From NCBI GenBank assembly GCA_040754455.1, contig JBFMCP010000002.1:160001-224000 (forward strand): DNA of 64,000 nucleotides, written 5' to 3'. Shown here one piece after another: positions 39,479 through 59,204 of this stretch; position 1 is the stretch's first letter, and every line of letters starts with the position of its first letter. Origin of the DNA: Nitrospirota bacterium. GTDB taxonomy: Bacteria > Nitrospirota > Thermodesulfovibrionia > Thermodesulfovibrionales > Dissulfurispiraceae. The translations under genes and the position numbers were made by a program. Under the pieces are notes generated by a model. That model did no database searches, had not been told where the DNA came from, and saw only the letters and a list, made by a program, of their open reading frames with translations.

Positions 39479-39957
39479 AGTATCAGTCCGTCGCCGAGAA
39501 CGTCAGGCTCGGAAAGAATGTAAAACTCGGAGATTTCATCAATCTCTACGGCTGCTCGATCGGCGACAATACCAAAATCGGAACATTTGTCGAGATCCAG
39601 AAAAACGCGTGCGTGGGGAGGAACTGTAAGATTCAGAGCCACACCTTTATTTGTGAAGGAGTGACGATTGAGGACGATGTATTTATAGGGCATAGTGTCA
39701 CGTTCATCAACGATAAGTACCCGCGGGCGACCAATGCCGACGGCACACTGCAGACCGAAAAGGACTGGAAGGTGGAGCCGACGGTTGTTAAAAAAGGAGC
39801 ATCGATCGGTTCGGGGGCGACTATTCTCTGTAATGTGACAATAGGAGAGAATGCAATCATCGGCGCAGGCAGCGTGGTCACCAGGGATGTGCAGCCCAAC
39901 GCTGTCGTGGCGGGCAACCCGGCAAAAACAATAAAGGAGAACAGCAATGACCGATAA
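39475..39957 (+). CDS. Hexapeptide N-acetyltransferase (WbpD/FdtC-like)
   Basis: Left-handed beta-helix repeats, FINDKYPR, GAGSVVT, GNPA. Confidence 0.88.
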   Translation: MKYQSVAENVRLGKNVKLGDFINLYGCSIGDNTKIGTFVEIQKNACVGRNCKIQSHTFICEGVTIEDDVFIGHSVTFINDKYPRATNADGTLQTEKDWKVEPTVVKKGASIGSGATILCNVTIGENAIIGAGSVVTRDVQPNAVVAGNPAKTIKENSNDR

Positions 39958-42229: not shown

Positions 42230-43180
42230 ATGATCGACAGGACGATTTACTATCATATAAAGCCCCTTATTCCACGACGCCTGCAGATTGCGGTGCGACA
42301 GCAGGTGGTGCTGTGGAAACGCAGGGTCCACACCGAACGATGGCCCATTGACGAGCATGCGAAGACGCCTCCCCGCAACTGGCAGGGGTGGCCCGGCGGC
42401 AAACAGTTTGCCTTTGTGCTTACCCATGATGTGGATACCATGAAAGGCCAGGACCGCTGCTATGACGTCATGCGGCTGGAAGAACAGCTGGGCTTCCGGT
42501 CCTCTTTTAACTTTGTCCCCCTGCGCTACCGGGTGTGTCCTGAATTGCGCGCCTGTCTCACCGGCGGTGGATTTGAAGTAGGTGTCCATGGATTGTATCA
42601 TGACGGGAAGTACTATGCCTCGAGGGAAGTTTTCAGGAATCGGGCGATTTTAATCAATCATTACCTCAGGGAATGGGGTGCCGTCGGCTTCCGTTCACCT
42701 TCCATGCAGCGAAACCTGGAATGGATCCACGATCTGCATATCGAATATGATGCCTCAACGTTCGACACCGATCCCTTCGAGCCCCAGCCCGACGGCGCCG
42801 GCACCATCTTTCCTTTCTGGGTGCAGCAGGATGAAAAAAGTCAGAAAGGATATACGGAGCTTCCGTATACGCTCCCCCAGGATTTCACCCTGTTTGTTCT
42901 CATGAAGGAGCGCAGCATCGACATCTGGAAAAAGAAGTTGGATTGGATCGCTGAAAAAGGGGGTATGGCGCTCTTGATTACCCACCCTGACTATATGAAT
43001 TGCAAAAACGACACCTTCGAGACGGATGGATATCCGCTGAGTTATTTCAAGAAATTCCTTGATTATGTGAAGTCCAGATATGAGGGCTGCTATTGGAACG
43101 CGTTGCCAATGGAGGTATCCCGCTTCTGGAAAGAAAACATGGTCACCGGCAGCAGGACGGAACAATGTTCAGAGCAATGA
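42230..43180 (+). CDS. Polysaccharide deacetylase-like protein
   Basis: LTHDVD, EVGVHGLYH, GFRSP, YDAS, ITHPDY. Confidence 0.78.
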   Translation: MIDRTIYYHIKPLIPRRLQIAVRQQVVLWKRRVHTERWPIDEHAKTPPRNWQGWPGGKQFAFVLTHDVDTMKGQDRCYDVMRLEEQLGFRSSFNFVPLRYRVCPELRACLTGGGFEVGVHGLYHDGKYYASREVFRNRAILINHYLREWGAVGFRSPSMQRNLEWIHDLHIEYDASTFDTDPFEPQPDGAGTIFPFWVQQDEKSQKGYTELPYTLPQDFTLFVLMKERSIDIWKKKLDWIAEKGGMALLITHPDYMNCKNDTFETDGYPLSYFKKFLDYVKSRYEGCYWNALPMEVSRFWKENMVTGSRTEQCSEQ

Positions 43181-43183: not shown

Positions 43184-44365
43184 ATGATAAGGCCCTTTGA
43201 GAAACCTGTATATGTGACGAGGCCCTTTTTGCCGCCGCTGGAGGAGTTCTGCCAGGGGCTCGAGGAAATATGGGAGAACCGCTGGTTGACGAACAACGGA
43301 CCCGTCCTCCAGCGCTTCACGCAAGAAATGTGCAATCTCTTCAGGACCGACAATATCTGCCTTTTCAATAACGGGACACTGGCCCTTCAAATAGCCCTGC
43401 AGGGAATGGGGATATCAGGCGAGGTCATCACTACTCCTTTTACGTTTGTGGCAACGACCCATGCCCTGTTCTGGAACAAGATCAGACCCGTCTTCGTTGA
43501 CATCGAACCGGAGTATTATACCCTTGATCCTGAAAAAGTCGAGGCGGCGATCACCCCCTGGACAACCGCTATCCTGGCGGTCCATGTCTACGGCCATCCC
43601 TGCAAGCTCGATGCGCTGGCCGACATCGCACGACGGCACAATCTGAGACTCATTTATGACGCAGCGCACGCGTTTGGCGTAGAAGTCGGCAACACCCCGA
43701 TCGCTCACTTCGGGGACCTGAGCATGTTCAGCTTCCATTCCACCAAATTATTCCACTCCATAGAGGGAGGAATGCTCGTTTTCCGGGAGGCGGGACTGAA
43801 AGGCATGTTCGACTACCTGAAGAACTTCGGCTTCAAAAACGAGGTCGAGGTCGTCATGCCCGGCACCAATGCCAAGATGAATGAAATGCAGGCCCTGATG
43901 GGCCTTCATGTTCTGAAATGCCTTGAAGAGATCATAGGGCAGCGTGCCAGGATTACCGACGTATATCGAGATGGGCTCGGGGATGTCCCCGGCATTCGCC
44001 TCACGCCGGCCCTGCCGCCCGAGGTGTACTACAACTACGCGTATATGCCGATCGAGGTGGATGAAGAGGAATTCGGGATGAGCCGCGATGCATTGTATGA
44101 AAAACTCAAGGAATGGAACGTATACACCCGCCGTTATTTCTATCCGCTCATCTGCGATTATTCCTGTTATCGCAGCATTTCGGTGAATGACTCCCTGGCG
44201 GTCGCACGCCGGGTGTCTGAGCGCATATTGACATTGCCGATCTACGACGGACTGGAACTCTCCGATGTCGAGGCCATCTGCGAGATCATTACGTCTCTCC
44301 AGCAAGGAACCAAGCATAAGAGGAAGGTCGTTGCTGCGCCGAGAGAGCTGGCAGGAATAAGTTAA
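43184..44365 (+). CDS. DegT-family aminotransferase (VioA-like)
   Basis: VTRPFLPP, WLTNNGP, YDAAHAFG, SFHSTK, GTNAKMNE, RRYFYP. Confidence 0.9.
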   Translation: MIRPFEKPVYVTRPFLPPLEEFCQGLEEIWENRWLTNNGPVLQRFTQEMCNLFRTDNICLFNNGTLALQIALQGMGISGEVITTPFTFVATTHALFWNKIRPVFVDIEPEYYTLDPEKVEAAITPWTTAILAVHVYGHPCKLDALADIARRHNLRLIYDAAHAFGVEVGNTPIAHFGDLSMFSFHSTKLFHSIEGGMLVFREAGLKGMFDYLKNFGFKNEVEVVMPGTNAKMNEMQALMGLHVLKCLEEIIGQRARITDVYRDGLGDVPGIRLTPALPPEVYYNYAYMPIEVDEEEFGMSRDALYEKLKEWNVYTRRYFYPLICDYSCYRSISVNDSLAVARRVSERILTLPIYDGLELSDVEAICEIITSLQQGTKHKRKVVAAPRELAGIS

Positions 44366-44381
44366 GCTCGGGAGATCGAAC

Positions 44382-45095
44382 ATGGAAAAAATCGTTCTTT
44401 TCGGAAACAGTGTATTTGCTGAGCAAATCTATTTTCTTCTGACACACGATTCTCCGTACGAAGTGGCGGCGTTTACGGTGGATGGCAACTACATCAAGGA
44501 TGATACGTTGTTCGGAGTGCCTGTTGTCCCTTTTGAAACGGTGGAATCTTCTTTTCCACCTTCAGAGTACAAAATGTCTATCGCGATCAGTTTTCAAAAA
44601 ATCAACAGATTACGAGAAGAGAAGTACCTGCAAGCGAAAGCCAAAGGGTATCAGTTCATTAATTATCTGAGCTCCAGGGCCACGTCGTATCCTGGTTTGA
44701 CGGTCGGCGACAATTGCATTATATTGGAAAACTCCGTGATTGCCCCCTATGTCGAGATCGGTAATGATGTCATCATAGCGTCCGGCGCGATGATCGGACA
44801 TCATACAGTAATAAAAGACCATTGTTTCATTTCTCCCGGCGCTGTTGTTTTAGGGGGCGTTACCGTGGAAGAATACTGTCTTATCGGAGCGAACGCGACC
44901 ATTAAAGAGGAGGTCAGAGTCGCAAGGGAGTGCCTTGTCGGAAGCGGCGTATCAATCACCAGAAATACCCGGGAAAGAGGGGTATATATTAACCCCCCGG
45001 CCGATTTGCATCCAAAGAGAAGCGACGAATTGAGAACATGGCTGACGTGGCCCTCAAGGGCGCGCAAATTTTCACCGGACTGCGTGTCGAAATGA
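44382..45095 (+). CDS. Sugar acyltransferase (NeuD/PglD/VioB-like)
   Basis: N-terminal Rossmann-like segment plus hexapeptide repeats, IGHH. Confidence 0.83.
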   Translation: MEKIVLFGNSVFAEQIYFLLTHDSPYEVAAFTVDGNYIKDDTLFGVPVVPFETVESSFPPSEYKMSIAISFQKINRLREEKYLQAKAKGYQFINYLSSRATSYPGLTVGDNCIILENSVIAPYVEIGNDVIIASGAMIGHHTVIKDHCFISPGAVVLGGVTVEEYCLIGANATIKEEVRVARECLVGSGVSITRNTRERGVYINPPADLHPKRSDELRTWLTWPSRARKFSPDCVSK

Positions 45096-46003
45096 AAGGC
45101 AAAGAACGTAAGGTGAGGACCTGCATACGAAATATGACGAAAACGGATGTGGAACGGGTGGGGGAGGTTCTCTTTGATGCGTTCAACGCTGGTGCATCGA
45201 AACACGGATATGCCCCGAGAATGCAGAGCGTGCAGGAAGGGACATCCTGGGCCTGGGCTATGCTTCGCCATGGTCCCAGTGAAAGACTGATTGCCGAGGT
45301 TGAAGAACGCCCTGTAGGAATATGCTGTCTGCATCCAAGGGGAGGTCATGGAGGCGTCGGGCCTGTTGCTGTTGCCCCGATGTTTCAGGGATATGGAATC
45401 GGACGGGAGTTGATGACCGCTCTACTCAAGAGGGCGGAGGGGTTACAGAGTGTAAGACTTTTCCAGGAAGCCTTCAATCCCGCTTCTTTTTCTTTGTATT
45501 ACTCGCTCAATTTCAGGCCGGCAGCAGAGCTGTTGGATTTATTTCTGGATGCAGGAGTGCGGGATGGAGTGGATCTGTGCAGCAATATCAGTGCCTTAAC
45601 CTTGAATGATCTTGATGAGGTGCATGCATATGATACTCCAAGAAGCACCTTGGACCGCCGGGCGGACTTTGCATATTATGTCAAGTGGGGCAAGGTTTTT
45701 GTTTATCGCCGTCAATCGCGGGTTCGCGGGTTTCTGGCATGTCTTCCCGGCTCACGGTCGGTGCAGCTTGGCCCCCTCGTCGCCGAAGGAGAAGAGGAGG
45801 CTCAGTGCCTGTTCCGCCACGCAGTCGGTGCCTTCAATGAACGACCATGCCAAACGCGTGTTATGGCCAGAGATTATTCACTTGTCAGGACTCTTCAGGA
45901 ATGGGGCTTTAAGCTCTATTGCCTGAACGTTCTCATGGTGAGAGGTGCATGGAGGCCCGGCCGATATATCGAAGCATTTGGCAGGTTCCCCGAAGGGACG
46001 TAA
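45092..46003 (+). CDS. GNAT-family N-acyltransferase (two-domain)
   Basis: GPVAVAPMFQGYGIGREL acetyl-CoA motif; start uncertain (45038/45092/45134). Confidence 0.75.
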   Translation: MKGKERKVRTCIRNMTKTDVERVGEVLFDAFNAGASKHGYAPRMQSVQEGTSWAWAMLRHGPSERLIAEVEERPVGICCLHPRGGHGGVGPVAVAPMFQGYGIGRELMTALLKRAEGLQSVRLFQEAFNPASFSLYYSLNFRPAAELLDLFLDAGVRDGVDLCSNISALTLNDLDEVHAYDTPRSTLDRRADFAYYVKWGKVFVYRRQSRVRGFLACLPGSRSVQLGPLVAEGEEEAQCLFRHAVGAFNERPCQTRVMARDYSLVRTLQEWGFKLYCLNVLMVRGAWRPGRYIEAFGRFPEGT

Positions 46004-46065
46004 GCTGCAAAAAAACTCACCGCTGAAAACCTATATTAATGATATCAACATGAGGAGGCGTTGCA

Positions 46066-46317
46066 ATGACGATTCTGAAAAACATTGAGAGATTTCTGCT
46101 TTCCGAAATCGCCCCTGATCTTGACAAGCAGTCCCTGGATCCTGATGAAGATATTCTCGAGCAGCGGATTATCGACTCCCTCGGGGTGCTGAAGCTGGTA
46201 GTTTTTCTGGAGAAGGCTCACGGCATACAGGTGCGTGATGAAGATATAGTCCCTGAGAACTTTCAAAGCCTCAACAGTATGGCCAACTTTGTCCAACAGA
46301 GGATGCAGAACGCGTAG
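46066..46317 (+). CDS. Stand-alone acyl/peptidyl carrier protein
   Basis: 83 aa, acidic, IIDSLGV phosphopantetheine motif, PENFQS. Confidence 0.9.
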   Translation: MTILKNIERFLLSEIAPDLDKQSLDPDEDILEQRIIDSLGVLKLVVFLEKAHGIQVRDEDIVPENFQSLNSMANFVQQRMQNA

Positions 46318-46472
46318 TTTGCGTTTTCGGTATAAGCCGGTGCTCAATGGGAGAGAAAACCAGGAGCGGTAATCCTTTTCCCCAGCCGGGAATACTCTCA
46401 AAATCCAGGGCCGTATCAAGATAATATTGTCGATAATTCCTCTGCTGTAAGAAAGCAGAAGGAGGTAATACT

Positions 46473-47618
46473 GTGAATTTCGAATTCAGTGAAGAGCAAT
46501 TGGAGTTCAAAAAAAGCGCAATCCTTTTCGCCCGGAAGACGCTTAATCACGATATTATCGAAAGGGATAGAGGTGCCGTTTTCTCCCGTGAGCTCTGGAA
46601 AAAGTGCGCGAATTTCGGCATACAGGGCTCCGCTTTTCCTGAACGATACGGTGGGCTCGACGCCGATATATTCAGCACGATGCTCATGATGGAGGGCTTG
46701 GGATACGGGTGCAAAGACAGTGGCTTGATTTTCGCCATCAACGGACAGATGTGGACGGTGCAGATGCCCATCCTGAGGTTCGGCACTGATGCACAAAAAG
46801 ATAAGTATCTGCCCGGCCTTTGCAGTGGCGAGCTGATCGGGGCCAACGGTGTGACCGAGCCGGACTCAGGGTCGGATGTTTTCAGTCTTACCACTTCAGC
46901 GAGGCGGGAGGGCGACTACTATATTTTGAACGGCGTCAAAACATTTTGCACCATAGCGCCTGCGGCTGACGTGTTTATGGTATTTGCTACCGTTGATAAG
47001 CGCAAGGGCTTTATGGGGGTCACTGCGTTTATCGTCGAAAGGGACTTTCCGGGCTTCAGAGTCGGAAGGGATATCGAGAAAATGGGGTTGAGGACCGCTC
47101 CCATGGCTGAGCTGATCCTTGAGGATTGCAAAGTGCCGGCAGAGAACCGTCTCGGCAAGGAGGGGAATGGAGCGGCGATCTTTGAGGACACCGCGGAGTG
47201 GGAAAGGAGTTGTATTTTGGCCGGGCTGCTCGGCGCGATGGAGAGACAGCTGGAACAATGCATTAAATATTCCAGAGAGCGGAAACAATTCGGCAAAGCG
47301 ATCGGGAAGTATCAGTCCATTGCCAATAAGATTGTTGATATGAAAGTGCGCTTGGATACGTCCAGGCTCCTTCTGTACAAAGTCGCCTGGGCGAAACAGG
47401 CCCACGGTAAAGCCGCCATGGATGCCGCTCTCGCAAAATTATACATAAGCGAGTCCTGGGTGCGTTCCTGTCTCGATGCCGTCCAGATCCACGGAGGGTA
47501 CGGCTATACGACGGAATACGAAGTGGAGCGCGATTTGCGTGATTCCGTCGGAAGTACACTCTATTCCGGGACCTCGGAGATTCAACGGAATATCATAGCC
47601 CGCTATCTGGGGCTTTGA
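46473..47618 (+). CDS. Acyl-CoA dehydrogenase family, prolyl-carrier-protein dehydrogenase-like (AnaB/PltE)
   Basis: [51 protein letters not shown]. Confidence 0.82.
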
Positions 47619-47643
47619 TGCCTTCAGACCAACAGAGAGAAAA

Positions 47644-50600
47644 ATGAAATCCAAAGATACCTCATTACGGATTCAAAAAGCTCTCATCATTGCGCTTGCC
47701 GTTCTGTCAGCAATTATTGTGGCGGTGACCTCTGTCAGTGCGCAGGCCCCCGAACCGGTGGTTGCCATACATGTCTCCGAGCTGACACAGGCCTTGGAGA
47801 CGATGCCAGCCGAGGCGCCTACCCCGACAGGATCGGGAGCTACTGGCTATGAGTGGTGGTATACTTCATGGCACTATTTTGTAATGCCTGAGTCATTGAA
47901 AGAAGTGCTGCGCTCGGACGGCACGCCGTTTGTTGAGGTGAGTGATGCCGATATTGCGGCCGGCCGTCTCCTTTATCCTGATGGAACTCCGAGATACCCT
48001 ATTCTGATCAGCTTAGCCTCTGAGTCGATCGCCGATAATGAAATCATACCGCTGCGCGACTACGTCGCTGCCGGCGGATTCCTGTTTATCGGCTCATCAG
48101 CGTTTACGCGCAACCCTGACGGCACAACACGGGGAGATTTTGCCTTGGCCGATGAGATGGGGATGCATATGGTGTATCCTGCCCTTCAGAACTGGTATAA
48201 AAACCTCTACTTCTCCAAAGTTGCTGATCACCGTTTGGCGGCCGGTATCCCGGCTGGCACCATCGCCTGGCGCATGCCGCTCAGTTCACAGGAGATCCCT
48301 TTGGAGACATCGCCGGGGCACTCCGTTCATGGATACCACTATGTGTTTCAGGTGTATGCCACCAGCGGCACTACCGTGATTGCCAATGGCGATGCAGGAC
48401 CGCTGCTCGCAACCAGACAATACGGCAACGGGAATTTTATCTACTATGGAGCTCTGCAGCCGCTTATCGGACACACTGTGTATGATCCGTCCATGTACGC
48501 ATATCTTATTTACCGTCATGCAATCGAATGGGCTTTCGAGGCCGCCGACCTCCCTCTCATTAAGCTCAGTCCATGGCGCTACGAATACGATGCGGCTTTT
48601 ATCGTCAGACATGATTTTGAGAACACTGCAGAGTTGATACGGTCCATCGAATCGAGCGCAGCATTCGAACATTCCGTCGGTGCAAAGGGCGATTATTATT
48701 TTTGCACGGGCACGCTCCGCGATGAAATGCCGGACAAAGACACCGTCATTGCCAGCCTGCGGAGAGCAGTCGCCGACTACGGGGCGACGATCGGATCACA
48801 CAACGGCGGGCTGAAGAATCCGGTAAACACCTCTCTTGCTATCGGTGCCTTCGATTACTGGCATTGGGGACCTGACGAGGTCCTGAGCAAAGTTCCCCCG
48901 GGGTATTCCAGCGGTAAAGCATATGCCCAAGAGTCTCTTTCTTCGGCCTTCCAGGATATAGAAGGCTGGCTTGCCGGGATAGACAACGGCCGGACGGGGT
49001 GCGGTTCGGCGGGGAGCTGCCCACGGATCTGGGCTTCGCCTTATTTTAACTCGACGCGGGAAGATTCTTACGGCATCCTGCAAGATCTGAATGCCGCGAG
49101 CATGGGTGAACAGAAAATCGGCCCCTTTCCACACTGGACTCTCTCGTACAATACACCTGACAAGCGGTTCTCTCATGTTTCGATACCAGCGAGCGACTGG
49201 TATGTCGGCGCTGAAGTCCCCGGCGCCCTTGAATGGGGCCATACTGCGGATTCGATGCGGGCGGCCGTCGATTTCTATTACAGCCTTGGCGCCATGATCA
49301 ACCTGTACGGGCATATGCCCTCAAACGACACTAACCTGATGGGGCAGTACGTAAAGTATTGCATCGCCAAACCCCGAATATGGGCAACCAATGCAGTGGA
49401 ACTATCCGATTGGTGGCGCGTGCGATCCGCTACTGTTATTACACCGACATATAGCATGATAGACAATACCTCCATCGCAGAGGCCACGATTAGAGGGGCC
49501 ACCGACGAGGGCACTACTATTGAAGTGGCTCTGCCTGCCGGAATCGATCAAATTGATAGTAATCTCCAGGTCTTCATTAACGATGTGCCGGCTGACCCCG
49601 CTGATTACCGTATCATTGGGAACACGATAAAGGTTCGAATCGGCCCTTCGACTTCCAATGTGAAAGTGCAGTACACGATCAGTGATTCTCCTGTCGGAAC
49701 CTGGACACAAACCGATTGGATGGGCGGCGGCGGGCAGTCTGTCTGGAATGATGCAACGCGCTATGGTTCAGCCAGCGGCATTGATGACAGGCTCAGTGGA
49801 AACATCAGTCTTGCCGCCAGTAGCACCGTACTGTTTTCTGATGACTTCACCCGTCTGCCGGACAGCCCTGACCCACTCTCTCCATGGGTTGTTCCGATGG
49901 GAACGTGGTCAGTAGCAGAGGGAGTGATGAAAGGATCGGGTACTCGCCTGCAGTATTCCTATGCCTATATCTCCCCAACGCCTCAATGGACCGATTATAC
50001 GGTGCAGGGGAGCATCCAGATGCCGGCCGGATCGTTCGGAGGCGGCATCGGCGGGCGTGTAGATCCTGTCACCGGCGCCCACTATGGCGCATGGGTCTAT
50101 CCGGCAGGATCGCCGGGTGGGTCGAATGTGTTGAAGCTGTGGAAATTCCGGGGTTGGACAGACATTGGCGCCGGTGTGCCGATGCAGCAGGTCAGCCTGC
50201 CTGATGTCGGCACAGGTTGGCACACGCTCCAGCTGACGTTCATAGAGAATCGTATCCTCGTTTATTACGACGGCGTCCTGAAGATTGACGTGATGGATAA
50301 TAATTATGACTCCCGTGCTCCGTATTTGAGTGGTGGTATAAGTATGGATTGGGAGGCCTACAAAGCACCGTATACTATAACCGTCGATAACATATCAGTC
50401 GTCACCCTGCCGGAGTATGGCAGCAGCGGCGTAGTTGTATCTTCGGCTTTTGATGGCGGCGACGGAGTGCAGTGGCAGACCGTATCGTGGGATGCAGCTA
50501 CAGGGGACAGCACAAATGTTTGCATCAGAACCCGTACCGCTGATGTGGCCGACCAGCTTGCCGCTGCATCCTGGTCGGATTGCTACAGCACCAGCGGATC

Positions 50601-51789
50601 GGTGATAATGAGCGGGAACAAACGCTGGATCCAGTACCAGATGGAATTGACCACCAGCGATCCGTCAAGCTCGCCTGTTTTCGATGAAATCAGGATATCC
50701 TACCTGAAAGGGCCGGTTATCAACAGCTTGGCGCCAGCATCAGTTACTGCCGGGAGTTCAGCGTTCACACTTTTCGTCAATGGCAGCGGATTCGCCACTG
50801 ATTCTATAGTACGCTGGAATGGCTCGGATCGTCCCACAACGTATGTCAATGCCACTCAGTTAGCAGTGTCGATACCGGCAACGGATATAGCGGCGGCTGG
50901 AACAGTCCAGGTGACGGTGGTCAATCCTTCCTTCGGAGGGATCATCTCCAATGCCCAAATCTTCACGATCAATAATCCCGTGCCGGCGATTTCGAGCCTG
51001 AATCCATCATCCAGGGCAGCCGGAGGCTCAACCTTCACACTTACCGTCAATGGTACCGGCTTCATCAGTGATTCCGTAGTCCAATGGAATGGAGTAGATC
51101 GTCCGACCACATTTGTTTCTGCAACACGGCTGACCGCTGCGATTCCTGCTTCGGACATAGCGACAGCAGGGATGGCCCAGGTGATGGTGGTCAATCCCGC
51201 ACCGGGGGGCGGCACCTCTCAACCGCAAACCTTCACGATCAATAATCCGGTGCCGGCGATTTCGAGCCTGAGCCCTGCGACGGTCTATTCCGGAGGACCG
51301 AATTTCACGCTGACTATAAGTGGCAGTGGCTTTGTCCCCAGCTCGGTGGTCCAATGGAATGGATCTGCTCGTACGACGACGTATATTGCTTCGACCAAGT
51401 TGACCGCTGCGATTCCTGCTTCGGACAGAGCGACAGCAGGGATGGCCCAGGTGATGGTGGTCAATCCCGCACCGGGGGGCGGCACCTCTCAACCGCAAAC
51501 CTTCACGATCAATGATCCTCCGGTACCGGTAATTACGAGCCTGAGTCCGTCATCCGCGACAGCCGGAGGGTCGGCCTTCACACTGACCGTCTACGGCAGC
51601 GGCTTCGACATCGACTCGGTGGTCCAATGGAATGGAACGAGCCGTACGACGACGTATCTTTCATCAACCAAGCTGAGAGCTACAATTACGGCAGCCGACA
51701 GAGCGTCGGCAGGAACTGCCCAGGTGACCGTGTTTACGCCTGCCCCTGGTGGCGGCATCTCCAATCCACTGATCTTTGTAACGTACTGA
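47644..51789 (+). CDS. Large secreted protein: deacetylase-like N-terminal region, beta-sandwich domain and four IPT/TIG-like repeats
   Basis: Signal peptide, RHDFE/GSHNGG/YGH motifs, repeated PAISSLxP..FTLTVxGxGF...SVVQWNG..RxTT units. Confidence 0.7.
51131..51513 (+). repeat. Near-identical ~113-bp internal repeat within the TIG domains (51131-51243 and 51401-51513)
   Basis: tgaccgctgcgattcctgcttcggaca(t/g)agcgacag...cttcacgatcaat; one mismatch seen. Confidence 0.85.
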
Positions 51790-51847
51790 TCCGTCCACTC
51801 CGGTTACATCAACATATATCTAATCTGTTCAGCAACGGAGGTTGAGA

Positions 51848-53437
51848 ATGGCCTACTTACTCCATCACTTGTTATCCGAAAGTGCAGCGAAATACCCGGA
51901 CAAAGAGGCAATCGTCTGGAAAGACGAGAAAATGACCTATGCCGAATTGGAGCGGGAGAGCAACAAATTGGCGTATAGCCTTTCGGAAATCGGGATAAAA
52001 AGAGGAGACCGGGTCGGCATTTACATGGAGCGGTCTATAACTTTAATGGTAGGGATTTTCGGGATCATGAAGACAGGAGCGATGTATGTTCCCATAGATC
52101 CCCTCTGTCCACCGGGCCGCCTCAGCTACATTGTGAACAAATGCGAAATAAAATTCTTACTCGTTTTAAAAGAAAAGCTGACAACTATAACGCAAGCGCT
52201 TCCTGCATACTCTCCCTTGAAAACCATTCTGGTTATGAATGGCCTGGATTCTGAGTCCGGACCGTTCGGATCTGCGAAATTGATCGATTGGCAAGAGATT
52301 CGCGGGGCCGCAAGAGAAGAAGCTCCATGCACGAATACGATCGATTCGGATGTTGCGTATATCCTGTTTACTTCCGGCTCGACAGGTACTCCCAAGGGAG
52401 TTATGCTGTCGCACCTGAACGCTTTGACGTTTATAAATTCGGCACACGACTTTTTCCGTATAACAATGCATGATCGGTTCTCCAACGTCTGTCCCCTGCA
52501 CTTCGATATGTCCGTCTTCGACCTTTTCGTTGCATTCAAGGCAGGAGCTACTGTGGTCATCATCCCCGAGACCGCCGCCATGTTCCCGGTAAAATTGGTC
52601 GAAGTCATTGCGAAGAACAAGATATCGGTATGGAATTCGGTGCCCTCGGTACTTGCGCTTCTGGCTTCATATAAGAATTTGGAGAGCCACGATCTGTCAA
52701 GCCTGCGCCTGGTTCTTTTCGCTGGCGAGCTGTTTCCCCTGAAATATCTGCAGCGGCTCCGGGAGGCAGTTCCGGGAGCACGGTTTTGCAACATGTACGG
52801 GCAGACCGAAGCCAATTCTTCGACGTATTATTGGGTTGACCAACTTCCCGCAGATGCGACGGCACCGCTTCCCATCGGCAGGCCGCTGCCGAACTTCGAA
52901 GTGTTCGCCATGGACGCTGGCGGCAGACAGGTTACCGAACCCGGACAGGAAGGCGAGCTCTATGTGAGGGCGTCCACTGTTGCGCTCGGATATTGGGGTG
53001 AAGTTGAGAAAACAAAAAAGTCTTTTGTGAAAAACCCACTGAGACCCGACCTGAATGAAAGGGTCTACAAGACCGGTGATTTGGTTCGCTTGGACGCCGA
53101 TCGGAATTATGTATTCCTGGGCCGGAAGGACCACATGATAAAGAGCCGGGGGTACAGGATCGAGATCGGAGAGATAGAAACGGTTTTGTGCAACCACCCG
53201 GAAATCCGGAACGCCGTCGTTATCCCCATTCCGGACGAGCTCATAGGGAACAGGATTTCGGTGATCGTCGTTCCAATGACACCGGGCGGAATCACGAGGG
53301 ACGACGTTGTGAAATATTGCAGTGCACAACTTCCGAAATACATGGTCCCTGAGATTGTTACGTTCCGTGATGCCCTGCCCGCAACTTCATCGGGAAAGGT
53401 CGATAGAAAAAAAATGAGTGCACCTGTAGTTGCCTAG
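51848..53437 (+). CDS. Stand-alone amino-acid adenylation enzyme (NRPS A domain)
   Basis: YILFTSGSTGTPKGV, FDMSVFD, NMYGQTE, YKTGDL, IKSRGYRIEIGEIE, LPKYMVP, GKVDRK. Confidence 0.92.
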   Translation: MAYLLHHLLSESAAKYPDKEAIVWKDEKMTYAELERESNKLAYSLSEIGIKRGDRVGIYMERSITLMVGIFGIMKTGAMYVPIDPLCPPGRLSYIVNKCEIKFLLVLKEKLTTITQALPAYSPLKTILVMNGLDSESGPFGSAKLIDWQEIRGAAREEAPCTNTIDSDVAYILFTSGSTGTPKGVMLSHLNALTFINSAHDFFRITMHDRFSNVCPLHFDMSVFDLFVAFKAGATVVIIPETAAMFPVKLVEVIAKNKISVWNSVPSVLALLASYKNLESHDLSSLRLVLFAGELFPLKYLQRLREAVPGARFCNMYGQTEANSSTYYWVDQLPADATAPLPIGRPLPNFEVFAMDAGGRQVTEPGQEGELYVRASTVALGYWGEVEKTKKSFVKNPLRPDLNERVYKTGDLVRLDADRNYVFLGRKDHMIKSRGYRIEIGEIETVLCNHPEIRNAVVIPIPDELIGNRISVIVVPMTPGGITRDDVVKYCSAQLPKYMVPEIVTFRDALPATSSGKVDRKKMSAPVVA

Positions 53438-53451
53438 AAGGGGCTGAGTCC

Positions 53452-54624
53452 ATGCAAAAGCTTATCAAAAACAGTTGGCGTCGCGAATCCGGAAAGCCGT
53501 TCGCTCAATCTAATATCCTGAGCCATGAAATTCACCCCGAAGGGCTGGATGTCGATAGAATCAGATTCTTCGAGGTGGGGGGCTTCGTACCGAAACCGGG
53601 TACGGGGCACATCATCAGTGTCCTTCGGGGGCGCGGGAGGCTTCATGTAGAGGGAGACGACAGACAATCCTTTCAGATAGAGGCGGGTGTCCACCTCTAT
53701 CTCCCGCCCGGCCTGGAGAGTGTTGTTGACGCGGAACCGGGGACCGAACTCCTGCACGTATCGAGTGCATCGGCCGCACAGGCGCGCGGCACGCAGCTGC
53801 TGCTGCGTGACGAAACGTTTCTTGCGGCCTGTGCATCCGGATCTCAGTTGCTTCGGTGGATTATTACACCCCAGTACCTGAGTCGCCGGATCTTTCTGCA
53901 CCACGACCCAACCATCCTTTCGAAGTCAGGGAATCCTGTTTCGTGGTTTCGGACCACGATGTTCGACGTTGCCGGACTTCCTGAAAACGAGGACGGTGAG
54001 CCGGTGTTCAAGATGTCCTACAATTCACGAACTGAGTTCAATGTCTGCTACGATGTGAAAGGGACTGCCCGCGTGCGTATGGCGCAGCACCCTTACAAAG
54101 AGAAGCGGCAGCTCTGGGGTCCGTGGTTCATGCTTGATGGCGACTCGACCTATCACTTAAACGAGACGGCCGGGAGTCCTGAAGAAGAGTGCCGCATCGA
54201 CGAGCTGACCGGGACCACGCAATTCCTTCGCAATAAACACGAGGTGTCGATCGTCGGCGGGTATGTGACGCTCTTTTGTCTGTTTGATCCGGCACCTACC
54301 GGCGCAGAATGCCACCGGCCCGGCGAGTACAGCGACTACGAGCCCCTGGCACAGGTGCTCGGAACAGAGGCGTACGAAACCCTCCGGCGTGAGTTCGTGA
54401 AGTACGATGAAATGGTGGATCGGCTCTCTCTGGCTAAAGCGACGGGCACACTGAGCACGCTCTACGGAACTCCAAGCTGGGAACTGTACGTACAAGGCCG
54501 GGAGGCCCAGGCGGCTATCGAAGCCCGGCTTGAAAGGACACTTTCTGTTGAGGGCAACGGCCGCTTGCGAATCCTCGCGCCCTGGATGCAGACCGTCGCT
54601 GCTTGCTGCGCGGTAACAGCCTGA
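53452..54624 (+). CDS. Hypothetical protein, possibly cupin-fold
   Basis: Long ORF in operon orientation; HIISVLRGRGRL...AGVHLYLPPG looks cupin-like. Confidence 0.55.
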   Translation: MQKLIKNSWRRESGKPFAQSNILSHEIHPEGLDVDRIRFFEVGGFVPKPGTGHIISVLRGRGRLHVEGDDRQSFQIEAGVHLYLPPGLESVVDAEPGTELLHVSSASAAQARGTQLLLRDETFLAACASGSQLLRWIITPQYLSRRIFLHHDPTILSKSGNPVSWFRTTMFDVAGLPENEDGEPVFKMSYNSRTEFNVCYDVKGTARVRMAQHPYKEKRQLWGPWFMLDGDSTYHLNETAGSPEEECRIDELTGTTQFLRNKHEVSIVGGYVTLFCLFDPAPTGAECHRPGEYSDYEPLAQVLGTEAYETLRREFVKYDEMVDRLSLAKATGTLSTLYGTPSWELYVQGREAQAAIEARLERTLSVEGNGRLRILAPWMQTVAACCAVTA

Positions 54625-54680
54625 ATGAAGAGAACCTATTTTTTAATCGAAGACGTATTCGGTCTCGAAGATGCACCTAT

Positions 54681-55658
54681 ATGAAAAATATTCTGGTTTC
54701 GGGCGCCAGTAGTATCCTCGGGTACGGCATTCTGCGTTCCCTCAGGAAAGCCGGGAAAAATGTAAGGCTTATTGGGACGACAATATATGCTGATTCGGTG
54801 GCCCAATATTTTTGCGATGTTTTCGAGAAGGCGCCACTGACTAATGATCCCGGCTATATTGACTGGCTCCTTAAAACTATTGCTAAGCATCATGTGGATC
54901 TTATCATCCCCGGCATAGAAGTGGATGTGTACAAATGGGTTGAACACCTTCCCGCTCTGGAAAAAAACGGCGTTAAGGCTCTGTTGAACAATCGGGATTT
55001 GATTTTGTTGTGCAAGGATAAATGGTCGTTCCATGAAAAATTAACCGAGATGAACACACCTTATGTAATCGATACGTCGCTGAAATCTGATTTTGATGCA
55101 TTGGTGGATAAATTCGGTTTGCCTTTTCTTTTAAAGCCGCGCCGGGGATTCGGTTCGAAAGGTATTGTCATCATAGATAGTAATGAAACTTTTTCAAAGC
55201 ATCAGCACGCCATCGGGCCCCTCCTGATGGCGCAGCCTCTCATTGGAAATGAAGATGAAGAATTCACAACATCGGCCTTTTGCGACGGCCACGGGAGCTA
55301 TTTCGCAAGTATGACCCTGAAGAGAAGACTCTCGAAAAGTGGTTTTACTGAAAAAGCGGAAGTCGTCACTATGGATGAAATACAGAGGGCATTAGTGATG
55401 CTGTGTGCATATTTTAAACCGATAGGACCTACTAATTTTCAATTCAGAAAGCATGACGGAGCTCTGAAGCTGTTGGAGATCAATCCGAGGATTTCTTCTT
55501 CTACATCGATCAGGACGGCGTTTGGATACAATGAATGCAACATGGCACTTGAATATTATCTGGAGGGCAAAAAACCAACGCAGCCTCTGATACAAAAGGG
55601 AAGGGCGGTCCGTTATATCGAGGATCTCATTTTTTATGAAAATAGGAATCATCTCTGA
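54681..55658 (+). CDS. ATP-grasp domain protein
   Basis: DKW, PFLLKPRRGFGSKG, EFT, NFQF, LEINPR; ATG at 54681 preferred. Confidence 0.85.
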   Translation: MKNILVSGASSILGYGILRSLRKAGKNVRLIGTTIYADSVAQYFCDVFEKAPLTNDPGYIDWLLKTIAKHHVDLIIPGIEVDVYKWVEHLPALEKNGVKALLNNRDLILLCKDKWSFHEKLTEMNTPYVIDTSLKSDFDALVDKFGLPFLLKPRRGFGSKGIVIIDSNETFSKHQHAIGPLLMAQPLIGNEDEEFTTSAFCDGHGSYFASMTLKRRLSKSGFTEKAEVVTMDEIQRALVMLCAYFKPIGPTNFQFRKHDGALKLLEINPRISSSTSIRTAFGYNECNMALEYYLEGKKPTQPLIQKGRAVRYIEDLIFYENRNHL

Positions 55659-56304
55659 TATCCACGGTAATTATGAAGCTTTAAAGGCGGTTCTTACAGA
55701 GTTGGACAGGTTGGGCATCTCTGAAATCTACTGTCTCGGCGATGTCGTCGGATACTATTCTCAAGTCAATGAATGTTGTGATGAACTGAGATCACGACGC
55801 GTCGTCTGCGTGATGGGGAATCATGACTGGTATATGGCCGCCGGTAGTTGTTGTCCGAGATCCAAAAGCGTTAATGAATGTCTCGCTTATCAGAGAGAAG
55901 TAATAACTGCGGGGAATGTACATTGGTTAAGCAACTTCCCCGTCCATATCCGGATTGACAATATGCATTTGCTCCATGGAGGCTGGTCGGATCCGATAGA
56001 CGAGTATGTGCGGCCGACTGAAGAATATTTTTCGCGGTTGAGCGGAGACATATTTGTATCCGGGCATACCCATGTGCAAACGTTGTGTACATATAATGAA
56101 AAGACGTATTGCAATCCGGGTTCCGTAGGGCAGCCGCGTGACAGTGATCCGAGGGCCGCTTTTGCCGTTTATGACGGAGAGTTTTCACTGCACCGTGTGG
56201 ACTATGATGTGCAGAAAGTCTTTGAACTCATGCAGAAGGCAGGATTCAGCGACTATTATTACGGTTGTTTAAAAACAGGAGCTAGAAATCTTTGCAGACT
56301 CTGA
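55636..56304 (+). CDS. Metallophosphoesterase
   Basis: SDIHGN, LGDVVGY, GNHD, GHTH, NPGSVGQPRD. Confidence 0.9.
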   Translation: MKIGIISDIHGNYEALKAVLTELDRLGISEIYCLGDVVGYYSQVNECCDELRSRRVVCVMGNHDWYMAAGSCCPRSKSVNECLAYQREVITAGNVHWLSNFPVHIRIDNMHLLHGGWSDPIDEYVRPTEEYFSRLSGDIFVSGHTHVQTLCTYNEKTYCNPGSVGQPRDSDPRAAFAVYDGEFSLHRVDYDVQKVFELMQKAGFSDYYYGCLKTGARNLCRL

Positions 56305-56468
56305 GTTAACACGAAACCGCTCATAATCGGGAGGTGCGGCATCCGGCTGCCGGAAAATAGGTTGTGGCCTTCCTGGTCGCAGGTTCCTCGCGGCCTCGCC
56401 GCGGGGGAATTCTCGAAGCGCCCGATCCGAACATTACTGCTCTCCGTTTCTGACGTCATCAACGTGAA

Positions 56469-57434
56469 ATGCACTGCAGGGAAATAAACGAAGCGACCAT
56501 AGGCTATGCTCATCCACGCTATGCCGATTCTCTGCGCGAATTCGGTGAGCCACGTGAGTTGCCGCGCTGTGGCGGTTGGATTCTCGTGCGGCCGATTCCC
56601 AGTACGCCGTATAAGGACGCCATGGGGTGTTACCCCTTGTTTTCCTGCCGGGACTGGAGGAAGCTCCACGAAGATATGGAACAGATCAGTTCCGATCTCG
56701 TATCACTAACCCTTGTTCCTGATCCGCTCCTCGGAGTCGACCCCGATTATCTGGTACAAAATTTTGATCTCGTCAAACCATTCAAGACGCATTACGTGGT
56801 CGATCTAAGTCAACCCTTAGAGAAGTTCGTCGGTAAGACGCATCGTAAAAACGCACGTAAAGCACTCGAGGCAATGGATGTTGAGATCTGCAGTCAACCG
56901 ATACAATATCTTGACGACTGGGTAAGGTTGTATGACAACTTGATTAAAAAGCACGATATCAAAGGAATCAGCGCTTTCTCTCCTCAATGCTTTGAGTCTC
57001 AACTTAATGTGCCGGGAATGACCGCCTTCATCGGCAGGCGGGAGGGAGAGATCGTCGGGGCGACGCTGGTCCTGAGGAGCGATCAAACAGCCTATTTTCA
57101 TTTATCCGCCTATACCACGGAAGGGTACAAGATACGGGCTTCGTACGGAACTCACTGGAAGGCGCTTGTCTGCGGATACGAACAGGGCATCCGGTACTTT
57201 CACCTCGGTGGAATCGCTGGCACAAAAGAAGACCCGAAAAACGGCTTGGCCGAATTCAAAAGAGGGTGGTCCAACGATCAGCGCATAGTCTATTTTTGCG
57301 GACGTGTGTTCGACAGGGAAAAGTACGAATCTCTTTGTCAGAGAAGGCATGGCTATTTCCCCGGCTATAGGAGAGGAGAACTGCGTGCTCACGATTTCTA
57401 TAGCCACGATCGGACTATTATGACAGCGCAGTAA
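56469..57434 (+). CDS. GNAT/FemAB-like acyltransferase; start uncertain
   Basis: DAMGCYPLF, HRKNARKA, YFHLSAY, GLAEFKRGW. Confidence 0.7.
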   Translation: MHCREINEATIGYAHPRYADSLREFGEPRELPRCGGWILVRPIPSTPYKDAMGCYPLFSCRDWRKLHEDMEQISSDLVSLTLVPDPLLGVDPDYLVQNFDLVKPFKTHYVVDLSQPLEKFVGKTHRKNARKALEAMDVEICSQPIQYLDDWVRLYDNLIKKHDIKGISAFSPQCFESQLNVPGMTAFIGRREGEIVGATLVLRSDQTAYFHLSAYTTEGYKIRASYGTHWKALVCGYEQGIRYFHLGGIAGTKEDPKNGLAEFKRGWSNDQRIVYFCGRVFDREKYESLCQRRHGYFPGYRRGELRAHDFYSHDRTIMTAQ

Positions 57435-57545
57435 TTAAGGCGGTTTCTGGAGCACAAACCTCTTTGACGCAAACATTTTGTTTTGTGGATACAAGGCCTG
57501 AAGTGAGACAACTATGATGCTCCGGATGCATGGAGTAACCAAAAG

Positions 57546-58247
57546 GTGAGGGTTTTGGTCTTATTCGGCGTTGGTAACATGCTCAGCGATATCTATGACT
57601 GTGTCACGGTGCTGGGGAAAGAGGTCACCAGGATTGTCATAAACGCACCGGAGCAGAGGCGCGAGCGGACAAAAGACTTCGAAACAAGGCTCCGGGAACT
57701 CGGTGAGCGGCCACTGATCACGCCACTGAAAGATTTTGCTCCTGAAGAAGGCGAAGAGTACTTCGTCGTGCCGACGACGCTTAAAAAAAACGTTCTTATC
57801 GAGTTCCTCAAAAGCAGATACCGCATGCGGTTTGCGCAGCTCATTCATCCTACGGCATACATTTCTCCCTATGCAAAGATCGGACAGGGCGTTTTCATCG
57901 GCGCAAGGAGTGTGATCGGACCGGGATCTGTTCTTAAAGACCACGTCTTCGTGAACCGCGGGGTGACTGTGGGGCACGATACTGTCCTCCATGAATACGT
58001 TCGATTGAATCCCGGCAGCAATGTTGCAGGCCATGTCGAGATATGTGCCGGTGCGATGATCGGTCTGGGCGCCAGCGTTATCGAGGAGCTTGTTGTCGGA
58101 AGGGAGGCCGTCGTTGCAGCAGGCGCGGTGGTGATCAAAGACGTACAGGAAAGGACCATGGTAGCCGGCGTCCCGGCGGTTGTCAAGAAAGTGTTTGAGA
58201 ACGAGACCGGCCGCAGCGCCGTGGACGGCTCGAAAGTGGAGAAATGA
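57546..58247 (+). CDS. Sugar acyltransferase (NeuD/PglD-like)
   Basis: LIHPTA, VGHD, hexapeptide repeats, GAVV..DV, GVPA. Confidence 0.85.
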   Translation: MRVLVLFGVGNMLSDIYDCVTVLGKEVTRIVINAPEQRRERTKDFETRLRELGERPLITPLKDFAPEEGEEYFVVPTTLKKNVLIEFLKSRYRMRFAQLIHPTAYISPYAKIGQGVFIGARSVIGPGSVLKDHVFVNRGVTVGHDTVLHEYVRLNPGSNVAGHVEICAGAMIGLGASVIEELVVGREAVVAAGAVVIKDVQERTMVAGVPAVVKKVFENETGRSAVDGSKVEK

Positions 58248-59204
58248 ATGAATAACAAGCTCATCATCAATTTTGCACCGACCGGCATGATCCCGACCAA
58301 GCAGATGACGCCGTATGTACCGATCAGTGTTTCCGAGATTGTCGAAGACGTTCACGAAGCCTGTGAACTCGGCATCTCGATGGTTCACCTGCATGCCAGA
58401 GACCCCCTCTCAGGCAAGCCAACGTACAAGGCGGAAATTTACGGCAGGATTATCGATGGAATCCGCAAGTATGCACCGGATTTGATTGTTTGCGTCTCAT
58501 TGAGCGGCCGGGATTTTGGAGAGTTTGAAAAAAGGGCGGAACCATTGGAGTTGGATGGAAGCCTGAAGCCGGATATGGGAAGCCTGACCTTGAGCTCGGT
58601 CAACTTCAACAAACAGGCATCAGTGAACGAACCGGGCATGATACAGGCACTGGCCTTACGGATGAAAGAGCGAGGCATCATCCCTGAGCTCGAAGCGTTC
58701 GACATCGGCATGATCAATTACGCGCGCTATCTGGAAAAGAAAGATTTGATATCACCGCCGTATTATTTCAATCTCTTGCTGGGCAATATCTCCTGTGCGC
58801 AGGCCGACCTCCTGCATGCCGGCATTATGATCAGGGATCTGCCCGAAAGGTCGTTATGGAGCCTGGCCGGTATAGGAGACAGTCAATTGCCCATGAACAG
58901 TGTAGCCATCGCCATGGGCGGAGGAGTCCGTGTCGGTCTTGAAGATACGATCTTCTTCGACGGTCGAAGAGACAGGTTGGCGCGCAATATCGATTTATTG
59001 AAGCGCGTTCATAACATTGCGAATGACCATGAGCGGCCGATTATGCCGGCACAGGAATTACGGCGGCTCTTAGATTTGAAGGATGGATACGGCCGGTACG
59101 GCCGGAAAATGGAATCAACGGATTCTGGTTACAAACCGGCCCAGAAAGTATATGGGCGAACAGCCCATCTGAAGAGAGTGGCTTTGCAGCGGCAGCTGCA
59201 CTGA
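58248..59204 (+). CDS. Beta-keto acid cleavage enzyme family (Kce/BKACE, DUF849)
   Basis: APTG, VHLHARD, PDMGSL, PELEAFD, VRVGLED. Confidence 0.88.
   Translation: MNNKLIINFAPTGMIPTKQMTPYVPISVSEIVEDVHEACELGISMVHLHARDPLSGKPTYKAEIYGRIIDGIRKYAPDLIVCVSLSGRDFGEFEKRAEPLELDGSLKPDMGSLTLSSVNFNKQASVNEPGMIQALALRMKERGIIPELEAFDIGMINYARYLEKKDLISPPYYFNLLLGNISCAQADLLHAGIMIRDLPERSLWSLAGIGDSQLPMNSVAIAMGGGVRVGLEDTIFFDGRRDRLARNIDLLKRVHNIANDHERPIMPAQELRRLLDLKDGYGRYGRKMESTDSGYKPAQKVYGRTAHLKRVALQRQLH

Follow-up and report, generated by a model that had tools for sequence, protein, structure and literature searches.

A Putative Prolyl-Carrier-Type Acyl Cassette with a Bicupin Partner in an Exopolysaccharide Locus of a Nitrospirota Bacterium and in Related Loci

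The conversion of proline into pyrrole- or pyrroline-type units is carried out by trios of proteins that consist of a free adenylation enzyme, a free carrier protein, and a flavoenzyme of the acyl-CoA dehydrogenase (ACAD) fold that oxidizes the carrier-bound ring. Such trios include AnaC/AnaD/AnaB, which generates the starter of anatoxin-a and in which the product of AnaB passes to a polyketide synthase, as well as PltF/PltL/PltE, PigI/PigG/PigA, RedM/RedO/RedW and the Bmp enzymes, which form pyrrolyl-2-carboxyl units; to our knowledge, no role has been described for them other than to supply the starters of toxins, pigments, and antibiotics. The subject of this work is a comparable set of genes within a stretch of 64,000 nucleotides (the window) from a Nitrospirota bacterium of the family Dissulfurispiraceae (GenBank assembly GCA_040754455.1, contig JBFMCP010000002.1, positions 160,001 to 224,000 of the forward strand), in which a carrier protein (46066-46317), an AnaB/PigA-like dehydrogenase (46473-47618), an adenylation enzyme (51842-53437), and a bicupin (53452-54624), all encoded on the + strand, lie inside an exopolysaccharide locus. 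The reading that we favor, with a probability of roughly 0.55, is that these four genes constitute an acyl cassette, a derived branch of the prolyl-carrier pyrrole/pyrroline systems that was recruited into glycan biosynthesis, and whose oxidized acyl group would become N-linked to an amino sugar.

All three trio proteins of the window find matches among the Plt, Pig, Red, and Bmp systems, and the architecture is also that of AnaCDB. Unlike AnaCDB, however, the window carries neither a ketosynthase nor a condensation domain, the code of its adenylation enzyme departs from the proline consensus at five of eight positions, the genes lie in a glycan operon, and a bicupin is added; unlike the Plt, Pig, Red, and Bmp systems, it has no halogenase or assembly-line partners, its dehydrogenase scores below the equivalog cut-offs, and its substrate code and glycan setting set it apart as well. 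A carrier-made oxidized prolyl unit does land on a sugar (noviose) in the aminocoumarin pathways of CloN/CouN, as is proposed here, but there the product is a small-molecule antibiotic, the link is an ester to a sugar hydroxyl, and a second carrier and dedicated acyltransferases take part. In the lincosamides, an amino acid is finally amide-linked to an amino sugar. The lincosamide enzymes LmbC and CcbC are, like that of the window, free-standing adenylation enzymes of the proline clade, and Kadlcik et al. (PMC3874040) describe an LmbC code remodelled for a substituted proline. The pathway differs in that it has no ACAD-type ring oxidation, in that the remodelled residues of LmbC are other ones and non-polar, and in that its product is an antibiotic, not a polymer. 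D-alanylation of teichoic acids, in which the free adenylation enzyme DltA and the small carrier DltC put an amino acid on an envelope glycopolymer, is also similar, but the unit proposed for the window would be oxidized before transfer; the DltA model (NF003417) gives the window adenylation enzyme 290.5 bits, below its cut-off of 476, and no MBOAT/DltB-like or DltD-like family was found among the 51 open reading frames (ORFs) of the window that were scanned. The XrtA/PEP-CTERM-associated acyl-CoA ligase (TIGR03098), an AMP-forming ligase found with a carrier within exopolysaccharide loci, is the top NCBIfam model of the window enzyme, at 391.6 bits and thus below its cut-off of 592.35; we know of no AnaB-like dehydrogenase in that system.

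The dehydrogenase, a protein of 381 residues, contains the three acyl-CoA dehydrogenase domains (PF02771, PF02770, and PF00441, with E values of 8e-43, 5e-26, and 3.9e-23), and its best solved relative is AnaB (4irn), to which residues 2-381 align with 473.6 bits. The next solved relatives are the dehydrogenase of entry 6cxt (340.6 bits), which was deposited as a butyryl-CoA dehydrogenase in a structure that includes a carrier chain, and PigA (5zw0, 325.8 bits), while the first ordinary acyl-CoA dehydrogenase, a butyryl-CoA enzyme, follows at 291 bits. A preliminary description of the interval 46066-53437, prepared without database searches, had named a grouping with ordinary fatty acyl-CoA dehydrogenases as an outcome that would refute its reading; the enzyme stands apart from these, and the subfamily motifs quoted for it, EWER among them, are indeed present. 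Among NCBIfam models, PigA leads with 459.9 bits (cut-off 500), followed by RedW with 406.6 (cut-off 650), the next model reaching 313.9. These comparisons place the enzyme in the prolyl-carrier dehydrogenase clade, yet as an equivalog of neither PigA nor RedW. The RedW model found nothing above its cut-off in 14 control genomes, and a tblastn search of plasmids for named dehydrogenase references returned generic names only. A decoration with an ordinary fatty-acyl or hydroxyacyl group was ruled out, the top three solved relatives being AnaB, the 6cxt enzyme, and PigA. A hydroxymalonyl- or aminomalonyl-carrier pathway of the FkbI/ZmaI type, considered on account of the polar pocket of the adenylation enzyme, was set aside; none of the 60 solved-structure matches listed for the dehydrogenase is of the FkbI/ZmaI type, and Pfam revealed no 3-hydroxyacyl-CoA-dehydrogenase-like partner in the window.

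The carrier (83 residues; PP-binding E 7.4e-6, with a DSL serine motif) is of the prolyl-carrier type, and PltL (31.8 bits), the carrier chain of 6cxt (30), and PigG (28) are all among its top seven matches in the PDB. The free-standing adenylation enzyme (531 residues; AMP-binding E 8.3e-94, plus AMP-binding_C) belongs to the proline clade and passes the amino acid adenylation domain model TIGR01733 with 388.3 bits (cut-off 317.4). PltF (6o6e) is its best single-domain solved match, with 315.6 bits, the higher totals of linear gramicidin synthase being sums over two domains. The resemblance to the Plt, Red, and Ana trios, which the preliminary description had pointed out, is borne out for each of the three proteins.

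The substrate code was read at ten specificity positions in an alignment of the window enzyme with 48 neighbouring adenylation enzymes from related loci. The positions were mapped initially from the numbering of GrsA, and the mapping is validated by the recovery, from the same alignment columns, of the consensus L(L/F)YLALVC given for free-standing L-proline adenylation enzymes by Kadlcik et al. (PMC3874040). The 49 codes fall into two groups, with no intermediates. The proline-type group comprises 35 rows, with Tyr278 and Val330 in all of them and mostly Cys331; 22 match the consensus exactly, and the remaining 13 differ from it at one to three positions. The variant group comprises 14 rows (the window, 12 complete relatives, and the truncated row of locus L028, in which six positions can be read, with Leu at 236), and its pattern, D-M/L-x-N-L-A-x-S/T-S-K, combines Asn278 with Ser or Thr at 330 and Ser331. 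The window itself reads D-M-F-N-L-A-M-S-S-K, so that, over the eight positions of the same published consensus (M-F-N-L-A-M-S-S), three residues are identical and five differ: Asn278 for Tyr, Ser330 for Val, Ser331 for Cys, and Met for Leu at both 236 and 322. The stretches VWNSVP and TEANSS, from which a substrate other than proline had been suspected, are both present and cover positions 278, 330, and 331, the very ones that separate the two groups. According to the work on lincosamide enzymes (PMC3874040), positions 236, 301, and 330 touch the proline ring in a model of CcbC, and a change at 330 in LmbC opens the pocket for a 4-substituent. A smaller, polar residue at 330, together with Asn278 and Ser331, suggests a ring that bears a polar substituent; with Asn, Ser, and Ser in the pocket where the proline enzymes have Tyr, Val, and Cys, the substrate is probably a proline-like imino acid other than plain L-proline, the best guess from the code being a hydroxyproline-like ring.

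A scan of one genome per species yielded 79 loci with relatives of the dehydrogenase (52-89% identity; numbered L001 onwards), 42 of which also encode homologues of the carrier. They derive from Nitrospirota, Thermodesulfobacteriota, Bacteroidota, Chloroflexota, and Omnitrophota, and further from Gemmatimonadota, Acidobacteriota, Planctomycetota, and Alphaproteobacteria. A quick maximum-likelihood tree of the dehydrogenases, with 76 rows and rooted on the second, unrelated enzyme of the window's genome, was built without L014, L015, L032, and L066, whose aligned pieces are shorter than 370 residues, and without AnaB, PigA, and PltE. The 19 rows labelled as variant, 13 from a code that was read and six from cassette make-up or dehydrogenase identity, form one clade with SH-aLRT support of 93 (99 for 17 of them), and this clade is nested in one of 26 rows (SH-aLRT 99), in which the remaining labelled rows come from proline-code loci of Thermodesulfobacteriota. 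The dehydrogenases of the variant and proline groups are fixed differently at a single residue, Gly91 versus Ala, in the segment GLIFA-x-N-A/G; position 16 displays a weaker difference, Ala91Gly alone being robust, and the exchange of Ala for Gly fits a slightly larger ring substrate. Against AnaB, the dehydrogenase of the proline-code relative L020 scores 477.5 bits, and that of the window 473.6. As judged from the tree and the alignment, the variant is a derived offshoot of the proline systems, with an oxidase pocket that is almost unchanged.

In two related loci, the genes for the beta and alpha subunits of electron-transfer flavoprotein (ETF) directly adjoin that of the AnaB-like dehydrogenase (L021:4857-8582 and L026:13241-16723), accompanied in L021 by a CCG/Fe-S oxidoreductase and in L026 by an ETF-quinone oxidoreductase; in the genome of the window, ETF is encoded on contig 17. 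This gene arrangement suggests that prolyl-carrier 'oxidases' of anaerobes may be ETF-coupled dehydrogenases, which would provide such enzymes with a way to work without oxygen.

The fourth gene of the cassette, which starts 14 bases 3' of the adenylation gene, encodes a protein of 390 residues with a C-terminal helical domain that belongs to no named family and has no Pfam or NCBIfam match at default thresholds. An AlphaFold2 model reached a mean predicted local distance difference test (pLDDT) score of 93.9 with an alignment of 32 rows, as compared to 50.6 with 13 close homologues, and predicts two cupin barrels in one chain. In VIA comparisons, the best match is the IolB-like protein 2qjv (Z 18.1; root-mean-square deviation 3.0 over 226 residues), followed at Z values of about 17 by 1sfn, 1gqg, 4e2q, and 2h0v (DR1152, ureidoglycine aminohydrolase, and quercetinases), and by BacB (15.8) and AerE (15.1); Foldseek agrees on the bicupin fold, with E values of about 1e-11. 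Six arginines, His263, Glu238, and Glu264 are invariant in the family, and His81 and His288 nearly so, a pattern suggestive of metal binding in the second barrel and of an anionic substrate. A role as an ectoine-synthase-like cyclase is a lead only: the match of the bicupin to PF06339 has an E value of 0.17, 19 of 32 family members match this model weakly (best E 1.5e-6), and solved EctC covers one of the barrels only, with a Z of 6.7. Selenocysteine, flagged from internal TGA codons in homologues, was rejected, as these codons lie beyond or outside the aligned protein. Sequence databases hold 82 representatives of the family at E <= 0.001 among 1.84 billion, or 618 clusters at 90% identity, which are named 'hypothetical' or 'quercetin dioxygenase-like' by their sources.

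The bicupin follows the variant code strictly. Homologues with 60-76% identity are found in 14 loci, namely all 13 other loci with the variant code and L013, whose contig ends before a possible adenylation gene, and in none of the 35 proline-code loci within the DNA that was fetched. The bicupin is the best marker of the variant and the fourth invariant gene of the cassette. Its distribution also reveals that the cassette is accessory: it occurs in six of 301 sampled genomes of the phylum, that of the window included, and in none of 23 other genomes of the same family, one of which is of the same genus.

The setting of the cassette is that of a polysaccharide locus. From a position of about 32 kb up to the end of the window, the genes are almost exclusively on the + strand and make up a single exopolysaccharide locus, which begins with a NusG-like regulator, a Wza-type exporter, a chain-length protein, a ParA-like kinase, and an AAA ATPase, followed by an initiating sugar-phosphate transferase. 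It continues with a UDP-GlcNAc-3-dehydrogenase-like oxidoreductase, three hexapeptide acyltransferases (at 39475, 44382, and 57546), two DegT-family aminotransferases (39947-41173 and 43184-44365), and two FemAB-like proteins (at 41040 and 56469), and further with a GNAT protein, an ATP-grasp enzyme, a metallophosphoesterase, and a beta-keto-acid cleavage enzyme, to end with a Wzx flippase, a GT2 glycosyltransferase, a DUF354 protein, and a WecB epimerase. The gaps between cassette genes measure 14 to 155 bases, and the gene 3' of the bicupin overlaps it by 22 bases, which fits a single operon; a promoter and terminator scan of 44000-56500 found fewer sites than in shuffled sequences and was hence uninformative. 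The preliminary description had placed the trio, at the coordinates confirmed here, among two aminotransferases and several acyltransferases and had seen no condensation or ketosynthase domain; Pfam agrees on the former, and neither domain family, nor a thioesterase, occurs among the 51 ORFs of the window that were scanned. Nor was a condensation domain found anywhere in the genome, an assembly of 92 contigs that marker genes rate as 100% complete. What that account missed is a protein of 1381 residues inside the interval and the bicupin just outside it.

Linkage to glycan genes is not confined to the window. All 13 other variant-code loci carry such genes around the cassette, in tightly spaced, same-strand operons. 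In L002, L006, L007, L008, L010, and L012, Pfam identifies GT2 and GT1 glycosyltransferases, a Wzm/Wzt ABC exporter, PMT_2, polysaccharide pyruvyl transferase, PIG-L de-N-acetylase, FdtA plus DegT, and nucleotidyl transferases, and in L009, L011, L015, L017, L027, L028, and L031 glycan genes are recognized by their similarity to the sugar genes of the window. Proline-code loci near the variant clade follow suit in six of the seven cases examined: L021 encodes an initiating transferase, an exosortase, a GNAT protein, two de-N-acetylases, GT1, a sulfotransferase, and a flippase; FemAB-like and MurJ-like proteins are encoded in L022, L024, and L036, joined by GT87 in the latter two and by GT2-GtrA in the last; L063 carries GT4s, a sulfotransferase, and Acyl_transf_3, and L023 carries WecB, while L025 is unclear in this respect. 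The prediction that the trio would be tied to glycan loci elsewhere is thus upheld, and none of the refuting tests named in the preliminary description that could be run in silico went against its overall interpretation. The de-N-acetylases that recur in these loci resemble the logic of NodB/NodA, where an acetyl group is replaced by a carrier-borne acyl group.

Three gene orders recur around the variant cassette, of which the core of carrier, dehydrogenase, adenylation enzyme, and bicupin is the sole constant part. The first runs from a NeuD-type acyltransferase and a GNAT protein through carrier and dehydrogenase to adenylation enzyme and bicupin, with or without a secreted protein after the dehydrogenase. 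The second places a 220-residue protein, a Glyoxalase_4 protein, a 605-residue protein, and optionally a second small carrier before the four core genes, and the third precedes them with Wzt, a 331-residue protein, an O-methyltransferase, and a GNAT protein. An O-methyltransferase of the PF00891 type lies in or beside the cassette in L006, L007, and L011, which fits a hydroxylated ring. The 605-residue protein, present upstream of the carrier in place of the GNAT protein in L002 (7434-9251), L012 (7400-9208), L017, and L031, has weak matches to FkbH_N (E 0.026) and to a HAD-type phosphatase (E 0.0027), and is accompanied by the Glyoxalase_4 and 220-residue proteins and, in L012 and L017, by the second small carrier (L012:9205-9480; PP-binding E 0.0053); these genes may represent a glyceryl-carrier branch that feeds the same decoration. 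In L008, from a member of the Syntrophobacteraceae, a LuxE-like acyl-protein synthetase and a LuxC-like acyl-CoA reductase (4489-6805) lie upstream of the cassette. More distant relatives are mixed, with nonribosomal peptide synthetase (NRPS)-like proteins beside exopolysaccharide genes in L077 and ketosynthase III (KSIII) with an enoyl-CoA hydratase in L038, from Stappia. A flavin-dependent halogenase adjoins the proline-code trio in L033 (13482-14852; Chloroflexota) and L065 (8478-9743; Gemmatimonadota). Genes for a sulfotransferase, a flippase, or GT2 are present in these two loci as well, and halogenated pyrrole units may be made there.

Candidates for the acceptor and transfer steps lie immediately upstream of the carrier. 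The second DegT-family protein (DegT2, 43184-44365, +; PF01041 E 1.3e-93) is a DesI-like sugar aminotransferase, although its score with DesI, its best NCBIfam model, is 310 bits, below the cut-off of 650; homologues with 78-84% identity adjoin the cassette in L001, L003, L009, and L031, and it is proposed as the maker of the acceptor amino group. NeuD1 (44382-45095, +), a hexapeptide N-acyltransferase of the NeuD/PglB/VioB family (TIGR03570, 162.2 bits, cut-off 160.8), has cluster members near the cassette in 10 of the 21 sources over which neighbouring genes were clustered. The two-domain GNAT protein (45038-46003, +; Acetyltransf_1 E 7e-13, Acetyltransf_18 E 1.2e-9) directly precedes the carrier gene, as does its cluster in nine of the 21; a sequence search of solved structures found no relative of it. 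Both are candidate N-acyltransferases, the GNAT protein possibly a carrier-dependent one, and it is the linkage of these genes that points to acyl transfer to a sugar.

The mechanism that we propose would begin with the activation of a proline-like, probably hydroxylated, imino acid by the adenylation enzyme, which would load it onto the carrier. The flavoenzyme would oxidize the carrier-bound ring to a pyrroline- or pyrrole-carboxyl thioester, its electrons probably going to ETF rather than to oxygen, and the bicupin, probably a metal enzyme, would either supply the unusual imino acid or tailor the carrier-bound ring. The GNAT protein (45038), the NeuD-family enzyme (44382), or both could then move the acyl group to the amino group that DegT2 would set on a nucleotide-sugar, and the decorated sugar would enter the repeat unit of an exopolysaccharide flipped by Wzx.

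A number of observations weigh against this scheme. The proposed product is a prediction from genes, and neither candidate transferase is universal (the GNAT protein in 9/21 and NeuD1 in 10/21 sources), an FkbH-like protein taking the place of the former in four loci. The dehydrogenase remains under both NCBIfam equivalog cut-offs, those of PigA and RedW, and six of the 19 variant-labelled tree rows owe their label to cassette make-up or dehydrogenase identity. A substrate prediction from eight pocket residues is weak, and, with only three of these in common with the proline consensus, a non-cyclic polar amino acid is still conceivable. As for the bicupin, its fold matches are tied (Z 15-18) over isomerases, hydrolases, dioxygenases, and storage proteins and hence assign no reaction, and the sugar-acid isomerases among them (IolB-like and KduI) imply that it could serve the sugar branch instead.

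This last point also enters the account in which the substrate is plain L-proline, so that a pyrrolyl-2-carboxyl- or pyrroline-carboxyl-carrier, made as in PltFLE or AnaCDB, decorates the glycan; the altered code would then have arisen by drift or as an adaptation that has nothing to do with the substrate, and the bicupin would work for the sugar branch. The near identity of the dehydrogenase pocket with that of proline-code relatives, in which only Ala91 to Gly is fixed, and the similar scores of the window and L020 enzymes against AnaB (473.6 and 477.5 bits) would be expected from it. We nevertheless consider it rather improbable: every one of the 13 complete variant rows, which span several phyla, departs from the proline enzymes at positions 278, 330, and 331, while Tyr and Val, and mostly Cys, are conserved in all 35 proline-code rows; the bicupin follows the code and not the sugar genes, which vary between loci; and position 330 contacts the proline ring directly in the CcbC model (PMC3874040).

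Two other accounts dispense with the exopolysaccharide as the acceptor, and both appear unlikely. The cassette could make a small molecule, for instance a metabolite or signal of the pyrrole type, that stays free or bound to lipid instead of being joined to a polysaccharide, the glycan setting being due to co-regulation or to hitch-hiking on a mobile accessory island; the patchy distribution of the cassette (the bicupin in 6/301 genomes of the phylum and 0/23 others of the family) is compatible with this, as are the natural-product-like settings of distant relatives, with halogenases in L033 and L065, NRPS-like adenylation-carrier and P450-adenylation-carrier-thioesterase proteins in L077, and KSIII with enoyl-CoA hydratase in the Stappia locus. 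The window, however, holds no thioesterase, condensation, or ketosynthase domain and its genome no condensation domain, the cassette is embedded, in 13 of 13 other variant loci, in glycan operons whose genes are closely spaced and share one strand, and its most constant neighbours are amino-sugar aminotransferases and N-acyltransferases. Alternatively, the acceptor could be a protein-linked glycan, or a secreted repeat protein encoded inside the cassette: a large protein of this kind is encoded after the dehydrogenase and before the adenylation enzyme in the window, L001, L009, and L015, with one of the Flg_new_2 type in L006, and the best NCBIfam model of the flippase is an O-glycosylation flippase. 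This match, at 343 bits, is nonetheless far under the cut-off of 720, most variant loci (L002, L007, L008, L010, L012, and L031, for instance) have no such protein in the cassette, and the window encodes a Wza, chain-length, and kinase export set. Recruitment of the cassette into exopolysaccharide synthesis, with an imino acid other than plain proline as the substrate, is the reading that we retain.

The secreted repeat protein itself (47644-51789, +; 1381 residues) has a signal peptide and four TIG/choice-of-anchor-Z repeats (TIG E 1.7e-31; NF058597, 444 bits in four stretches). For residues 40-700, the nearest Atlas clusters are polysaccharide deacetylases (score 0.92; 183-186 of 256 features), so that a deacetylase-like N-terminal half is a lead only, and a sequence search of solved structures with residues 41-739 returned nothing. 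Relatives occupy the same place in L001, L005, L009, L014, and L015, and in L006 the equivalent place (11531-14665) is taken by an unrelated protein of 1044 residues with Flg_new_2 repeats; membership of the 1381-residue protein in the cassette is doubtful.

Other genes of the window deserve mention. The block 3' of the cassette (54603-59204) encodes an ATP-grasp enzyme that passes NF009402 (223.5 bits, cut-off 218), the metallophosphoesterase, the second FemAB-like protein, a second NeuD-type acyltransferase, and a beta-keto-acid cleavage enzyme of the BKACE family (PF05853, E 1.4e-78), a set that is unusual for a polysaccharide locus and that hints at a second decoration, derived from an amino acid. 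Just upstream of the polysaccharide operon, on the - strand (29591-31444), lies the gene of a 617-residue protein with fibronectin-III, InlB B-repeat, and two D-glucuronyl C5-epimerase beta-sandwich domains. An ORF of 316 residues (42230-43180), which separates the first FemAB-like gene from DegT2, matches nothing in Pfam or NCBIfam even when the E value is relaxed to 0.1, and a homologue of it was seen in L009 only (59% identity).

A search of the literature for a link between a prolyl-carrier dehydrogenase, or pyrrole-2-carboxylate, and a polysaccharide or O-antigen found none, within a coverage that leaves out most subscription journals, and a pyrrole-type decoration of surface sugars has probably not been described before. 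The chemistry of the trio is known already; what would be new, as judged from the genes, is the variant code, the bicupin partner, and the recruitment into glycan synthesis. A broader and more tentative proposal, to which we give somewhat less than even odds, is that anaerobic and other uncultured bacteria of many phyla decorate their surface glycans with a pyrrole- or pyrroline-type carboxylic acid, made on a carrier by an ETF-coupled relative of the proline oxidases of anatoxin and prodigiosin synthesis, and that the branch represented by the window uses a non-proteinogenic, probably hydroxylated, imino acid that is supplied or tailored by the new bicupin family and O-methylated in some loci, in which case both the glycan modification and the enzyme family would be undescribed. 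The bicupin family, with its 618 protein clusters, would thereby gain its first functional context. If the trio and its derived four-gene variant are fixed in the polysaccharide operons of many uncultured phyla, the chemistry of carrier proteins would reach as far as surface glycans, and the new, chemically distinctive sugar decoration that is predicted could play roles in serotype variation, in the evasion of phages or grazers, or in the metal and redox chemistry of biofilm matrices.

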